Origin: Escherichia coli | GTDB lineage: Bacteria; Pseudomonadota; Gammaproteobacteria; Enterobacterales; Enterobacteriaceae | Reading direction: 5' to 3' (one strand) | Length of the DNA: 64,000 nt | NCBI RefSeq assembly: GCF_016903815.1 | Contig: NZ_CP069973.1 | Shown: in pieces, positions 15,748 through 21,383 of the stretch | How positions within the stretch are numbered: position 1 is the stretch's first letter | Layout of the letters: every line of letters begins with the position of its first letter | Position numbers and translations under genes: made by a program | Notes under the pieces: model-generated | Database searches by the model: none | Told to the model about the DNA's origin: nothing | What the model saw: the letters and a program-made list of their open reading frames with translations, nothing else

Positions 15748-15773
<26 letters not shown>

Positions 15774-16476
15774 GATGCCAGCGCAGCAAGTTTGCCATCG
15801 CAAAGAGATATTTTTCGCTGGCTTCGTCGGAGGAGATGGGTGGAAACTCTGCGGTGATGCAATGCAGGTTGAGATCCGCACACCAACTGCCGAAAGAGCC
15901 AGGCGTTTCATAACCGACGCTGGTTACCAGAGGCAATTCAAACGCCTGGGCCAGCCATTCACCTAATTCGCTGTGTCTGGGATCTTCAATACAGGCCAGC
16001 GGATCGTGGAATGAGACCACCCAGGCGGGTTGAATGCGGTGTATAAGCTGGCACAGCGCCTGGGTTTCAGGTTCAGAGCCAGGTTTGTCACCTGTCAGCA
16101 ATACGACATCACGTTCTTCAGCGGCGCTGTTCCAGCGATAAACGGTTTCACCTTCCTTCCAATTCGCCGCCGGAAAGTTTCTGTTTAAATCCACACCATT
16201 AGCATTGGCCCGTAACCCCAACTGGCAGCCGTCAGGATTCACACACAGCACCACATGATGACGGCGCAAAGAAGGTGTCAACGTCCGCAGAGCACAGGAG
16301 AGCGTGACGACCGAAGAGTTTTCATCACCGTGAGTGCCAGCCAGAATCAAACCACTTTCGCGGCTGGCTGCAGGGGCAGGAAACCAGATTAACGGCGCGC
16401 CCAATAATGAACGTCCGTAATGTTCTGTTCCGGGCGGAAATGCGCCGCGTTCGGCGCGTGGGCGGGTTACGGTCAT
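15748..16476 (-). CDS. mpaA: Murein peptide amidase A (gamma-D-Glu-Dap amidase, M14 family)
   Basis: 242 aa from MTVTRPRAERG within ORF 15748-16536. Confidence 0.85.
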
Positions 16477-16766
16477 GATCGTCTCTGGTTCAGGAAGTAT
16501 TACAGGCAGTGTTGTGCAAATTTTGCGGATTATCAAATCCTTTTCTTCAACGCTATGTCATCGATCTTGTATCACTTTTTTGCCGGAAGTTGTTTGCATT
16601 TTCATTGATGTGCAGATATTAGAATTGTCGTAATGTTATATACATGGCGTATTTTATTCTTACTGGTTCTACACATGTTAATCGCATCTGATTGATCAGT
16701 TCACCTTAATAAGTTTAATAAATCGTACTGCACATAGTACAGTACGAAGGTAGCTATATAATTGAT

Positions 16767-17405
16767 TTACATGAAGAATGGCTTATCGCCATCAGTCCCG
16801 GGCTGATTGATGCCTATATTCTCACCAATGTGTTTCTCAGGTTTATCGATGATATCTGTAATTAATGCTGCGACACTCTTACGTGATACGATCGTACCTT
16901 TGAATGGTTCATTGCGTGAGGTAAGCTCATAATCAATAATATCTTCATCGGTCAGCCAGGCAGGGCGAAGAATTGTATATTCCAGTCCAGAAGCCTCAAT
17001 TGCATCCGCAGCCCTGCGGAATGGTTTTAGGGGCTCACAAATAACTGCATTATTCCATTCGCCAAATTTTCCTGGAACTTCATCATAAATACCGAGGGAA
17101 AGAACAAAGATCAGACGTTTAACATCACAGGCTTTCATCGCAGCGATCACTGAATTTGCCTGAATATCTAAATCTTCCCCCGTAAGGTTGGCATACACAA
17201 CATCCTGTCCCTGCATGGCCTGCTTCAGTGCTGCATGATTCAGTACATCCCCCATAATAATCTTGCTATTAGTTGGATAGGGTTTGTGGATTTTTGCTGG
17301 CTGACGGGCAAATAAAGTTTGTTTAATGGTTTGTTTATCTGCCAGTTGATTAATCACATGGCGGGCTATCTGACCGCCAGCACCAAGAATCAGTACATTT
17401 TTCAT
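16767..17405 (-). CDS. ymjC: NAD(P)-binding NmrA/SDR-like protein, full length here
   Basis: 212 aa; N-terminal ILGAGGQIARH Rossmann motif. Confidence 0.7.
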   Translation of the reverse strand: MKNVLILGAGGQIARHVINQLADKQTIKQTLFARQPAKIHKPYPTNSKIIMGDVLNHAALKQAMQGQDVVYANLTGEDLDIQANSVIAAMKACDVKRLIFVLSLGIYDEVPGKFGEWNNAVICEPLKPFRRAADAIEASGLEYTILRPAWLTDEDIIDYELTSRNEPFKGTIVSRKSVAALITDIIDKPEKHIGENIGINQPGTDGDKPFFM

Positions 17406-17476
17406 GAAACTTTTCCCAGATTATTGGCAGCAATATGCCAGGCCATATCACTATTACGGATTTGAATATGTTTCAT
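17402..17476 (-). CDS. Small ORF (24 aa) bridging ycjY and ymjC; possibly the ymjD small protein
   Basis: ATG overlaps ycjY stop, stop overlaps ymjC ATG; MKHIQIRNSDMAWHIAANNLGKVS. Confidence 0.35.
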   Translation of the reverse strand: MKHIQIRNSDMAWHIAANNLGKVS

Positions 17477-18396
17477 TACAGAGTTTCCTCAAAGAACGGC
17501 GCTAATACTGAAATTGCTTCAGCCACATAGACTTTGCCGTCATAAAGATCCATATGGTTTGCGCCTTCAACAATGTGATAGCGTTTATCCTGGCTTGATG
17601 CTCGATCGTACAGGTCGTCACTCATCCATTTGCTCCCTGCCTGGCTGCCCGCCACAATCTGTATCGGCTGAGTCAGGTACACTTCCGCCATATGGTAAGC
17701 ATCATAGGTAATAATCTGGTTAAGGCTGCGCAAAGTAGCGTAACCCGGTGCTGTTGGATACTGCGCGCGAGGGGTGTGGTAATACTCCCAGGCCTGACGC
17801 AGTTCTTCGTTCGGCGCATCGGACTCCTTCATTGGTGCCAGTGGCATGGTGGCGTATTCTCCGCTGCTAATATCGCTGGTTCGGGCGTTTGAACCCGCGT
17901 CAACGTATGGTAGGGCATCAATAGATTTCACATTGTTTTCCCAACCATTACGGAACATCGAACCAATATTGACCGCACTAACAGTACCGATGGCCTTGAT
18001 GCGGCGATCCTGAATTGCAGCATTGGCTGTATATCCTGCACCGGCACAAATTCCCATCGCACCAATTCGGCTATTGTCGACATAAGAAAGCGTTGTCAGA
18101 TAATCAATCACGGCACTGACGTCTTCAGTACGAATGTATGGGTTTTCTAACTGACGCGGCTCGCCGCCGCTTTCACCTTGATAAGATGCGTCATAAGCAA
18201 TAGTGACAAATCCCTTTTCCGCCAGTTTTTCGGCATAGGTTCCAGCCGTTTGCTCTTTAACGCCCCCACCTGGGTGAGATACCACAATTGCCGGATACTG
18301 ACGGGTTTCATCAAATTTTGGAGGGAAATAGATCACTGCAGACAAAGAGATGGTTGGATTATTGCTGTTAGTGAAGCTGACTTTATTATTCATCAT
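17476..18396 (-). CDS. ycjY: Alpha/beta hydrolase (dienelactone hydrolase-like)
   Basis: ORF 17476-18408; start at MNNKVSF with AGGAA SD gives 306 aa; GxCxG nucleophile elbow. Confidence 0.8.
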   Translation of the reverse strand: MMNNKVSFTNSNNPTISLSAVIYFPPKFDETRQYPAIVVSHPGGGVKEQTAGTYAEKLAEKGFVTIAYDASYQGESGGEPRQLENPYIRTEDVSAVIDYLTTLSYVDNSRIGAMGICAGAGYTANAAIQDRRIKAIGTVSAVNIGSMFRNGWENNVKSIDALPYVDAGSNARTSDISSGEYATMPLAPMKESDAPNEELRQAWEYYHTPRAQYPTAPGYATLRSLNQIITYDAYHMAEVYLTQPIQIVAGSQAGSKWMSDDLYDRASSQDKRYHIVEGANHMDLYDGKVYVAEAISVLAPFFEETL

Positions 18397-18533
18397 TCCG
18401 TTCCTCATGGAGTTGTCGGTTCGTTTTAACGGTTGGTGATATCACTATAGATATTGATCATTAAGTTGATTAGACCCAAAATCATGATTAGACCTATCAT
18501 TTAAATGATTAATAGATTGTATGGAGATACTGA

Positions 18534-19433
18534 ATGAAGCGTGAAGAAATCGCTGATCTGATGGCGTTTGTCGTCGTTGCAGAGGAGCGTAGCTTCACTC
18601 GCGCAGCAGCCCGCCTGAGCATGGCGCAGTCAGCTTTAAGCCAGATAGTGCGCCGTATAGAAGAACGATTGGGATTGCGGCTTCTGACACGAACCACGCG
18701 CAGCGTTGTACCCACTGAAGCGGGCGAGCATCTTTTGTCTGTTCTTGGCCCTATGTTGCATGACATAGATTCTGCCCTGACATCCCTGAGCGATCTGCAG
18801 AACCGCCCATCCGGGACAATACGTATTACTACTGTAGAACATGCAGCAAAAACGATATTGTTACCAGCTATGCGCACATTCCTGAAATCGCATCCTGAAA
18901 TTGATATCCAGCTTACCATTGATTATGGTTTGACCGATGTCGTTTCTGAACGTTTTGATGCAGGCGTCCGTCTGGGTGGGGAGATGGATAAAGATATGAT
19001 CGCCATTCGAATCGGGCCAGATATACCAATGGCTATTGTTGGCTCACCGGATTATTTTTCTCGTCGAAGTGCTCCAACGTCAGTGTCACAATTAATAGAT
19101 CATCAGGCAATTAATTTGTATCTTCCCACATCGGGTACAGCAAATCGCTGGAGATTAATACGCGGTGGACGTGAAGTTCGTGTTCGCATGGAAGGTCAGC
19201 TTTTACTGAATACGATAGACCTGATCATTGATGCTGCAATTGATGGGCATGGATTGGCGTATCTACCTTATGATCAGGTTGAGCGGGCTATTAAAGAAAA
19301 AAAACTGATACGTGTTTTGGATAAATTCACACCAGATTTACCCGGTTATCACCTGTACTATCCACACCGTCGACATGCTGGCTCGGCATTCTCATTATTT
19401 ATAGATAGGCTGAAGTATAAAGGTGCTGTTTAG
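18534..19433 (+). CDS. ycjZ: LysR-family transcriptional regulator
   Basis: 299 aa; N-terminal LysR HTH; divergent from ycjY. Confidence 0.85.
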   Translation: MKREEIADLMAFVVVAEERSFTRAAARLSMAQSALSQIVRRIEERLGLRLLTRTTRSVVPTEAGEHLLSVLGPMLHDIDSALTSLSDLQNRPSGTIRITTVEHAAKTILLPAMRTFLKSHPEIDIQLTIDYGLTDVVSERFDAGVRLGGEMDKDMIAIRIGPDIPMAIVGSPDYFSRRSAPTSVSQLIDHQAINLYLPTSGTANRWRLIRGGREVRVRMEGQLLLNTIDLIIDAAIDGHGLAYLPYDQVERAIKEKKLIRVLDKFTPDLPGYHLYYPHRRHAGSAFSLFIDRLKYKGAV

Positions 19434-19769
19434 CACTACTTGCTGATACATTAATTTAATTCTTCTCTTAACGTATTCTCAGTTCCTTTCAACGTTTTGG
19501 TCATTTTTTATTCTTCGTACAATGGCGACAGATGCTGATTATGATACCGAAAACGGGTTTGAACGTGCGAAGCCCGAACGTAGTGTTCGGAGTTCTATGT
19601 GCTTTACCGCATTTTGGAGACTATTATTTACACTAAATCTGATTTGATATATTGATACTTAAAACATTTGATGCTTCCTTTGTCACTTTTTTGATGGAAG
19701 TTGTTTGCATTTCTTTAAGGCGAAACAAATAATTACGCATCAATTTTAATGTCGGTTAGAGGGAAACTT

Positions 19770-21383
19770 ATGAAGCACTCTGTTTCAGTCACGTGTTGTG
19801 CGCTGTTGGTCAGCAGCATTTCTCTTTCGTATGCTGCTGAAGTTCCGAGCGGCACAGTACTGGCAGAGAAGCAGGAGCTGGTGCGCCACATTAAAGATGA
19901 GCCAGCGTCTCTGGATCCCGCTAAAGCCGTGGGCCTGCCGGAGATTCAGGTCATTCGCGATCTGTTTGAAGGACTGGTGAATCAGAACGAGAAAGGGGAG
20001 ATTGTCCCCGGCGTTGCGACTCAGTGGAAAAGTAATGACAACCGTATTTGGACTTTTACCCTGCGCGATAACGCAAAATGGGCGGATGGCACACCGGTAA
20101 CGGCGCAAGATTTTGTCTACAGCTGGCAACGTCTGGTGGACCCAAAAACATTGTCGCCATTTGCATGGTTTGCCGCGCTGGCGGGAATCAACAACGCACA
20201 GGCGATTATTGATGGTAAAGCCACGCCTGACCAGCTTGGCGTCACCGCAGTTGATGCCCATACTTTGAAAATCCAGCTTGATAAACCGTTGCCGTGGTTT
20301 GTGAATTTAACCGCTAACTTTGCCTTCTTCCCGGTGCAAAAAGCCAACGTAGAAAGTAGTAAAGAGTGGACGAAACCCGGAAAACTGATCGGTAATGGCG
20401 CTTATGTTCTTAAAGAGCGCGTAGTCAATGAAAAACTGGTCGTGGTACCGAATACCCATTATTGGGATAACGCCAAAACGGTGCTGCAAAAAGTGACCTT
20501 CCTGCCAATTAATCAGGAATCCGCAGCCACTAAGCGTTATCTCGCGGGGGATATTGATATCACCGAATCCTTCCCGAAAAATATGTATCAGAAGCTGTTG
20601 AAGGATATTCCGGGGCAGGTTTATACGCCGCCGCAGCTCGGGACCTATTATTATGCGTTTAACACGCAAAAAGGGCCGACGGCCGATCAGCGTGTTCGCC
20701 TGGCATTAAGTATGACGATAGATCGCCGCCTGATGACCGAAAAAGTGTTGGGGACGGGGGAAAAGCCAGCGTGGCATTTTACACCAGATGTTACTGCCGG
20801 TTTTACGCCGGAGCCTTCGCCGTTTGAACAAATGAGTCAGGAAGAACTGAATGCGCAGGCAAAAACTTTGTTGAGCGCAGCTGGTTATGGTCCGCAAAAA
20901 CCGCTGAAGCTGACGCTTTTGTATAACACTTCAGAAAACCATCAAAAAATTGCGATTGCTGTAGCATCGATGTGGAAAAAGAACCTTGGCGTAGATGTTA
21001 AATTGCAGAATCAGGAATGGAAAACCTATATCGATAGCCGTAACACCGGCAATTTTGATGTTATCCGCGCCTCATGGGTAGGGGATTATAATGAACCCTC
21101 CACTTTCCTTACGTTGTTAACGTCAACGCATTCAGGGAATATTTCACGCTTTAACAATCCGGCATACGACAAAGTACTGGCCCAGGCATCAACGGAAAAT
21201 ACCGTTAAAGCGCGTAATGCCGATTACAATGCGGCAGAAAAAATCCTCATGGAGCAAGCACCGATTGCACCAATTTATCAATATACCAATGGACGATTAA
21301 TCAAGCCGTGGCTGAAAGGTTATCCCATTAATAACCCGGAAGATGTGGCGTACAGTCGGACTATGTATATTGTGAAGCATTGA
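19770..21383 (+). CDS. mppA: Periplasmic murein tripeptide-binding protein (OppA paralog)
   Basis: 537 aa from MKHSVSV; signal peptide; SBP family 5. Confidence 0.9.
   Translation: MKHSVSVTCCALLVSSISLSYAAEVPSGTVLAEKQELVRHIKDEPASLDPAKAVGLPEIQVIRDLFEGLVNQNEKGEIVPGVATQWKSNDNRIWTFTLRDNAKWADGTPVTAQDFVYSWQRLVDPKTLSPFAWFAALAGINNAQAIIDGKATPDQLGVTAVDAHTLKIQLDKPLPWFVNLTANFAFFPVQKANVESSKEWTKPGKLIGNGAYVLKERVVNEKLVVVPNTHYWDNAKTVLQKVTFLPINQESAATKRYLAGDIDITESFPKNMYQKLLKDIPGQVYTPPQLGTYYYAFNTQKGPTADQRVRLALSMTIDRRLMTEKVLGTGEKPAWHFTPDVTAGFTPEPSPFEQMSQEELNAQAKTLLSAAGYGPQKPLKLTLLYNTSENHQKIAIAVASMWKKNLGVDVKLQNQEWKTYIDSRNTGNFDVIRASWVGDYNEPSTFLTLLTSTHSGNISRFNNPAYDKVLAQASTENTVKARNADYNAAEKILMEQAPIAPIYQYTNGRLIKPWLKGYPINNPEDVAYSRTMYIVKH

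Follow-up and report, generated by a model that had tools for sequence, protein, structure and literature searches.

The mpaA–mppA locus and its 30-bp direct repeat

The stretch of Escherichia coli DNA analysed here (the window; 64 kb of contig NZ_CP069973.1) carries the divergent genes of a murein tripeptide amidase (mpaA) and a murein tripeptide binding protein (mppA), with the LysR-type regulator gene pgrR (ycjZ) between them and a near-identical 30-bp motif upstream of each. An earlier note had proposed this motif as a shared operator or promoter element, and its origin is the subject of the present analysis. The locus, which is 100% identical to that of E. coli strain 7/2, is composed of the following features.

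15748–16476, minus strand: mpaA, murein tripeptide amidase gene
16572–16601, plus strand: left direct-repeat copy, TCACTTTTTTGCCGGAAGTTGTTTGCATTT, on the mpaA side; ancestral 'GCC' form, matching exactly the one copy of the empty-site relative L001
16602–19682, between the repeat copies: inserted cassette of 3,081 bp (SDR/NmrA-family gene, ycjY and pgrR)
16767–17405, minus strand: SDR/NmrA-family oxidoreductase gene, 212 amino acids; intact in the window, truncated to ymjC/ymjD in K-12
17476–18408, minus strand: ycjY, alpha/beta hydrolase gene
18534–19433, plus strand: pgrR (=ycjZ), LysR-type regulator gene, divergent from ycjY
19683–19712, plus strand: right direct-repeat copy, TCACTTTTTTGATGGAAGTTGTTTGCATTT, forming the 5' half of the predicted mppA promoter
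19770–21383, plus strand: mppA, murein tripeptide binding protein gene; a start at ATG 19770 gives the signal peptide MKHSVSV...

The two copies, both on the plus strand, share the form TCACTTTTTTG(CC/AT)GGAAGTTGTTTGCATTT. As the earlier note had reported, they lie at 16572–16601 and 19683–19712 and are identical at 28 of 30 positions, the sole mismatches being CC versus AT at positions 12–13. The surrounding sequence is unrelated, as had also been stated: when 70 nt on either side of the copies were aligned, the similarity outside the 30-mer was at chance level, and the extension of the motif to 37 nt by a repeat finder gains just four matches at the seven added positions. The left copy is located 96–125 nt upstream of the mpaA ATG (16476, minus strand) and the right copy 58–87 nt upstream of that of mppA, so that the placement described earlier is confirmed once the mppA start is set to ATG 19770. 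Given that the repeat is direct while mpaA and mppA are divergent, the copies are oppositely oriented relative to the two genes. A shared operator would be expected 5' of at least two functionally related genes, and the motif does stand 5' of mpaA and mppA.

With up to three mismatches allowed, the window contains two motif copies only, and none of 100 dinucleotide-preserving shuffles gave a match. The genome-wide search that had been proposed revealed the motif in 5,418 of 5,426 complete E. coli genomes. The median number of places per genome is two and the maximum four, which shows that it is specific to these two places and is not a common dispersed repeat. The idea that the pair reflects chance similarity or a dispersed repeat has the AT-rich composition of the motif in its favour and nothing more; against it stand the shuffles, the two places per genome and the exact tiling of the junctions described below, and we regard it as next to impossible. 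Six of the E. coli records that have the mpaA–cassette–mppA locus (12 motif places) are labelled as plasmids; these may be pieces of chromosome carried by large plasmids or reflect assembly labels. An Rfam scan of 16300–19900 detected no family above threshold, the one sub-threshold match (RAGATH-10) lying within pgrR, and folding predicted no secondary structure for the motif on either strand. On these grounds, the motif was dropped as a candidate RNA element.

The single-copy spacer and the insertion

To place the repeat in its wider context, we compared 80 loci around mpaA homologues from different GTDB species. Of these, 76 lack the cassette and have mpaA directly next to mppA in divergent orientation. 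The spacer is exactly 182 bp long and contains one motif copy in E. albertii, E. whittamii and three other Escherichia species, and spacers of similar length with one copy occur in Citrobacter, Enterobacter, Klebsiella, Kluyvera, Leclercia and other genera. The spread of the single-copy arrangement across these genera therefore marks it as ancestral.

The two junctions of the window, 16477–16601 (125 bp) and 19683–19769 (87 bp), rebuild the 182-bp spacers of five of these loci (L001, L002, L004, L005 and L009) without any insertion or deletion when they are overlapped by exactly 30 bp. The tiled junctions are identical to the L001 spacer at 172 of 182 positions, with 9–10 matches in every 10 nt as far as 16601 and again from 19683 onwards, and chance-level similarity beyond these borders. 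Thus, the uninterrupted site of the relatives holds one copy, while the interrupted site holds one direct copy at each junction. Because the junctions tile the spacer exactly with a 30-bp overlap, the repeat can be read as a target duplication flanking the 3,081-bp insertion. Both copies tile onto one ancestral 30-bp stretch, and their similarity is accordingly one of common descent and not of selection for binding. It is very probable that the 30-bp copies are duplicates of a single ancestral mpaA–mppA promoter segment, made at the insertion of a foreign 3-kb cassette, and do not represent an independently evolved shared operator. The place of the regulator gene between two murein-tripeptide genes is then an outcome of the insertion.

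The events may be reconstructed as follows. In the ancestral state, mpaA and mppA were divergent, and the 182-bp spacer between them held the segment once. Part of a LysR-regulated operon (pgrR on one side, and ycjY, a second hydrolase gene and the SDR gene on the other), obtained by horizontal transfer, then entered this spacer in a forebear of most E. coli. During insertion, 30 bp of the target were duplicated at both junctions, the step that the comparison of spacers shows.

The locus resembles known genomic islets and islands flanked by direct repeats, in that foreign DNA of deviating guanine plus cytosine (GC) content lies between copies of a sequence that is single in empty-site relatives, is polymorphic within the species and undergoes precise loss. 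It differs from them in having no integrase, transposase or tRNA target, in the length of the repeat, which at 30 bp is too long for a transposase-type duplication, and in its cargo, a truncated chromosomal operon. The event is therefore of a known kind, a direct-repeat-flanked foreign insertion in a divergent promoter region, while this instance is apparently undescribed: we found no mention of the repeat or of the insertion origin of the cassette in the searchable literature. The insertion accounts for the striking repeat in this well-studied locus of E. coli and averts its misreading as a regulon motif. Furthermore, since the PgrR module is a foreign insertion, PgrR and the hydrolase operon sit in the promoter region of two murein-tripeptide genes as a foreign module, and their adjacency to mpaA and mppA is no evidence of an ancient functional link.

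No integrase, recombinase or transposase gene was found in any of the three cassette forms (window, K-12 and long; see below), and a repeat search with inspection revealed no terminal inverted repeats at the cassette ends. A transposase framed by terminal inverted repeats and an integrase paired with an att site are thus both lacking as identifiable means of insertion, and no recombinase gene is associated with the element. The repeat could nonetheless be imagined as an att-like core, at which a cassette that is or was a small mobile element integrates and excises. Its 30 bp fall within the size range of att cores and beyond that of transposase-type duplications, excision was precise in two lineages, and the same spacer has taken other insertions, namely a cdtB islet in Salmonella arizonae/diarizonae and a 9.2-kb insert in L057. 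Yet a cassette that lacks any integrase or recombinase gene and that consists of a truncated piece of an ordinary chromosomal operon makes a poor mobile element; the motif is found nowhere else in E. coli genomes, the other spacer insertions have different breakpoints and no duplication, and recombination or slippage between 30-bp direct repeats suffices for precise loss. An att-like core is thus quite improbable, and a target duplication at the insertion of a foreign fragment remains our preferred explanation.

The other insertions are of some interest in themselves. In Salmonella enterica subsp. arizonae (L022:7449–9677, and similarly in L023), the mpaA–mppA spacer contains an islet of 3.1–3.4 kb, which encodes a protein of the cytolethal distending toxin subunit B family (NF011787, 379 bits) between two lipoprotein-like open reading frames. 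There, the mppA-proximal promoter blocks are replaced, and the motif is not duplicated. Independent insertions in other genera are the 9.2-kb insert in L057 and about 130 bp of extra sequence in L078, both between mppA and mpaA. No target duplication was found at the Salmonella and L057 insertions, the breakpoints of which differ from those of the cassette. The mpaA–mppA intergenic region looks like a recurrent insertion site.

Predicted promoters and candidate regulators

The function that the ancestral segment may have had was approached through its conservation, in an alignment of 71 non-Escherichia single-copy spacers, with the spacing of hexamers checked in 77 spacers. The elements predicted from this comparison have the following positions in the window.

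19705–19733, plus strand: predicted mppA sigma-70 promoter, with its −35 hexamer TTGCAT (19705–19710) in the right copy, 17 nt, and its −10 hexamer AATAAT (19728–19733)
16508–16536, minus strand: predicted mpaA sigma-70 promoter, with its −35 hexamer TTGATA (16531–16536), 17 nt, and its −10 hexamer AACACT (16508–16513)
16593–16598, inside the left repeat copy: second, orphaned mppA −35 hexamer

Against a background majority-base frequency of 0.53–0.60, the 71 spacers show four islands of conservation. These are GCAGTGTTGTGCAAA (0.92), TTATCAAAT (0.90), the motif itself (0.79 overall, and 0.84 in its 3' part, TTGTTTGCATTT) and GAAACAAATAATTA (0.92). On the mppA side, AATAAT is invariant in all 77 spacers, and exactly 17 nt upstream of it stands TTGCAT (55 spacers), TTGCAA (16) or TTGCTT (6), while the sequence between the two hexamers varies (majority-base frequency 0.58). 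The same TTGCAT-17-AATAAT site was reported by a consensus promoter scan. This is the pattern of a sigma-70 promoter, with near-consensus hexamers at a spacing of 16–18 nt, in which hexamers and spacing are conserved and the spacer is variable. Because of the fixed 17-nt spacing between TTGCAT and AATAAT across variable sequence, the right copy is taken to be part of the predicted mppA promoter. Judging from this conservation and fixed spacing, it would provide the −35 hexamer and a T-rich upstream region and, joined to its own −10 hexamer, would still act as the mppA promoter, with a predicted transcription start at about 19740 (plus strand). The proposal of a shared operator or promoter element thus survives in one half: the mppA copy, with a predicted −35 hexamer inside it, qualifies as a promoter element, while the shared operator gives way to duplication by descent.

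On the mpaA side, AACACT is present in 74 of the 77 spacers, and TTGATT, TTGATA or TTGATC stands at 17-nt spacing in 69 of those 74. The left copy begins 36 nt beyond the predicted mpaA −35 hexamer. Having lost its −10 hexamer, it would sit outside the conserved core promoter of mpaA, the transcription start of which is predicted at about 16501 (minus strand), some 70–100 nt further downstream, and is most likely a non-essential relic. The ancestral 182-bp spacer contained two outward, conserved −35/−10 pairs with the −35 hexamers 57 bp apart and in this respect resembles back-to-back divergent sigma-70 promoters; in E. coli, unlike in such arrangements, the region is split by the insertion and one −35 segment is present twice. 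Both promoter predictions are conserved across the Enterobacteriaceae. The repeat-flanked insertion as a whole helps in interpreting the regulation of PgrR, mpaA and mppA.

The neighbourhood of the predicted mpaA promoter offered two further observations. A 16-nt block at 16507–16522, GCAGTGTTGTGCAAAT, overlaps the predicted −10 hexamer and is nearly invariant (0.92 in the 71 non-Escherichia spacers). It is more conserved than a −10 hexamer requires and may be an operator or a 5'-leader element. A sigma-54 reading of GGCAGTGTTGTGCA near mpaA was rejected by eye, as its GG–GC spacing is 1 nt too small and conservation of the first G does not extend to Citrobacter.

Several points weigh against the account given here. 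The duplication of 30 bp exceeds those of the transposase type, and the cassette has no recombinase or transposase gene. Both promoters are predictions, as the searchable literature yielded no experimentally mapped transcription start of either mppA or mpaA. The CC/AT difference does not tell the copies apart across strains: AT stands in both copies of some strains, and CC in both copies of Escherichia sp. E1V33 (L003). This pattern implies gene conversion or allele shuffling, and it weakens the dinucleotide as a lineage marker. Finally, the upstream half of the motif (TCA.TTT...AAG) is more conserved across genera than ordinary sequence 5' of a −35 hexamer needs to be. It could be a transcription-factor site, possibly for both genes, and the left copy may then not be inert.

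The last point can be extended to the view that both copies are functional sites of a regulator other than PgrR, which acts on both ancestral promoters, and that the duplication persisted, or was favoured, since it left each gene with its own site. The TCA, TTT and AAG positions are 80–90% conserved in the 71 non-Escherichia spacers, compared with 53–60% in neutral stretches; had the cassette entered at the left edge of the motif, the mppA promoter would have stayed intact with no need of a duplication; and the copies are still identical at 28–30 of 30 positions in the sampled strains. However, the duplication is young, so that its identity requires no selection, and a UP-like or activator site serving mppA alone would explain the upstream conservation equally well. 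The left copy carries a substitution in SMS-3-5 (GTATTT), and cassette-free and cassette-bearing strains coexist. Nor did a comparison of the motif with CRP, MarA-box, Lrp, PhoP and OmpR-like patterns, made by eye only, bring out a convincing match to a known transcription-factor consensus. We consider such a second regulator unlikely and retain the relic interpretation of the left copy.

PgrR itself was an obvious candidate, as its gene sits between the copies. The earlier note had called ycjZ uncharacterised and had taken its position as a hint of a link to the motif; neither holds. The gene has been renamed pgrR and its product characterised by genomic systematic evolution of ligands by exponential enrichment (SELEX) (Shimada, Yamazaki and Ishihama 2013, as cited in PMC5934670 and PMC4797297). 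For this region, the SELEX peaks listed in PMC5934670 fall in the ycjY/ycjZ spacer only, and not at the motif. In the lists given there and in PMC4797297, mpaA appears as the last gene of a ycjY–ymjDC–mpaA operon, that is, under control from the ycjY promoter; the regulon listed in PMC5934670 includes ycjG, and mppA is not among its targets.

These data can be set against the possibility that PgrR binds both motifs and co-regulates mpaA and mppA. Besides the position of its gene, this possibility draws on a loose ACTT-N9-AAGT dyad in the E. coli motif, which fits the generic LysR pattern T-N11-A, and on the reported lowering of mpaA expression by PgrR in rich medium (PMC9928106; regulon list in PMC5934670). 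The duplication already accounts for the identity of the copies, though, and the SELEX peaks, together with control of mpaA from the ycjY promoter, place the action of PgrR elsewhere. The survey across the Enterobacteriaceae that had been suggested showed the motif to be conserved in 71 spacers of genera without pgrR at the locus, where the spacing of the dyad differs by 1 nt. Similarity between the motif and the ycjY–pgrR spacer was not above that of shuffled controls, and a tandem decamer found in that spacer, TGATTAGACC, is absent near the motif. The motif was dropped as a PgrR operator on these grounds, a role that we judge very improbable. The locus nevertheless shares with the PgrR regulon of E. 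coli K-12 the same genes (pgrR, the ycjY–ymjD–ymjC–mpaA operon and ycjG) and the reported repression of mpaA, differing from it in that the published peak is at the ycjY/pgrR spacer, and not at the 30-bp motif, and in that mppA is not listed.

The decamer deserves attention in its own right. TGATTAGACC occurs as an exact tandem pair in the ycjY–pgrR spacer, at 18467–18476 and 18485–18494, 18 bp from start to start, and no such pair was found near the motif or elsewhere in the locus. We propose it as a candidate PgrR operator. The LysR–ycjY spacer of Pluralibacter (L086) has a related TGATTAGAC/TGATTAA pattern.

Origin, forms and loss of the cassette

The cassette has a GC content of 44%, compared with 55% for mpaA and 48% for mppA. 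YcjY homologues that are 82–88% identical occur in Pluralibacter, Rhizobium, Sphingobium and Burkholderia. The amino-acid identity to the proteins of Rhizobium, Mesorhizobium, Agrobacterium, Sphingobium and Burkholderia, at 82–86%, is unusually high across classes and indicates what was probably a recent and wide horizontal spread of the hydrolase. In Pluralibacter, a PgrR homologue (79% identical) is encoded divergently beside the YcjY homologue (84%), in a context unrelated to mpaA/mppA. The full module was found in Klebsiella aerogenes/Salmonella and Citrobacter koseri contigs, where a LysR gene faces genes for two hydrolases, an NmrA-type SDR, an SDR and an OYE oxidoreductase. The DNA of this donor-type module is about 79% identical to window 16690–19432, again in surroundings unrelated to mpaA/mppA, whereas the outermost 88 bp (16602–16689) and 250 bp (19433–19682) of the cassette are without a homologue in the donor-type loci examined. 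A foreign origin is thus supported by the absence of the cassette from 76 of the 80 loci, its GC content and the homologous modules in unrelated contexts. On the last two grounds, the E. coli cassette is part of a LysR-regulated operon that was acquired horizontally and is truncated.

Two hairpins lie within the cassette.

16723–16747, minus strand: terminator-like hairpin 3' of the SDR gene, separating the cassette genes from mpaA (−15.3 kcal/mol, z = −4.1); deleted in K-12-type strains
19574–19590, plus strand: weak terminator-like hairpin 3' of pgrR, at the right end of the cassette (z = −1.8)

Three forms of the cassette were distinguished: the window form, a long form and the K-12 form. 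The long form has an extra alpha/beta-hydrolase gene between ycjY and the SDR gene and is nearer to the donor-type module. In two long-form strains, E. coli O145 RM12275-C1 (L089) and Z1323HEC0399 (L091), this second hydrolase gene is pseudogenised, and in the former it is interrupted by ISEc20 (IS110-like). The K-12 form (L092) is without window 16602–17266 (665 bp), as is that of Escherichia sp. E1V33. This deletion takes the 3' two-thirds of the SDR gene, giving ymjC/ymjD, together with the hairpin at 16723–16747. Read-through from the PgrR-controlled ycjY promoter to mpaA may consequently be easier in K-12-type strains than in the window strain. The K-12-type deletion begins where the left repeat copy ends on its right side, to within 1 nt. 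In Escherichia sp. E1V33, the ycjG–mpaA flank is about 14% diverged from E. coli and the cassette with mppA about 6%, with the K-12-type junction in common. The divergence pattern suggests that the cassette region may have moved between Escherichia species by recombination.

To look for strains without the cassette, a 782-bp composite empty site was searched as a contiguous match in the 5,426 complete E. coli genomes. It was found in 173 of them (about 3%), including IAI39 and CE10. As direct repeats, the two copies would serve as recombination substrates, through which the cassette is deleted precisely and the 182-bp single-copy spacer restored. Secondary loss was judged by flank identity. 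The CC/AT dinucleotide was rejected as an unambiguous sign of the right copy in view of the strains with AT in both copies and of the 99 and 147 genomes that match the two diagnostic 30-mers. The empty strain CP131_Sichuan (L081) shows no difference from cassette-bearing K-12 over 1,672 bp of the left flank and 100% identity over 1,887 bp of the right flank, and its single motif copy has the dinucleotide AT of the K-12 right copy. Likewise, empty SCU-172 (L083) has 0 differences in 1,672 bp of the left flank from cassette-bearing SMS-3-5, and its motif is in the right-copy form GCATTT. Ordinary E. coli pairs differ at 20–54 sites over the same left flank. Because of this flank identity to cassette-bearing strains, on both sides in L081 and on the left in L083, and because each keeps a single right-form copy, both strains appear to be products of precise deletion between the repeats. 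The comparative data thus show an apparent precise loss of the cassette in two independent E. coli lineages. In this, the locus is like known cases of precise deletion mediated by direct repeats, through recombination or replication slippage, since the empty-site E. coli keep exactly one copy and have flanks identical to those of cassette-bearing relatives; it is unlike them in that the process is deduced from comparative genomics alone. The locus constitutes a natural presence/absence polymorphism, for which near-isogenic natural pairs exist, for example K-12 and CP131_Sichuan.

A more speculative possibility, which we put forward tentatively and think unlikely, is that the repeats make the pgrR cassette a removable module independent of any recombinase, leaving the mpaA–mppA promoter region repeatedly in E. 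coli populations and possibly re-entering it via a single crossover of the excised circle. If so, mpaA would switch between ancestral stand-alone regulation and PgrR-dependent read-through control, and the role of PgrR as a 'peptidoglycan recycling regulator' would be a strain-dependent by-product of the insertion and of the K-12-type deletion that removes the hairpin.

The donor-type modules also have a neighbourhood of note. In three Klebsiella aerogenes/Salmonella contigs (L093–L095), defence-like genes are located about 2.5–5 kb downstream of the module, encoding a cyclase and PycTM (Pycsar-like) in L093 and L094, and SMODS and SLATT in L095. These changing neighbours suggest that the donor-type module lies in a variable genomic region.

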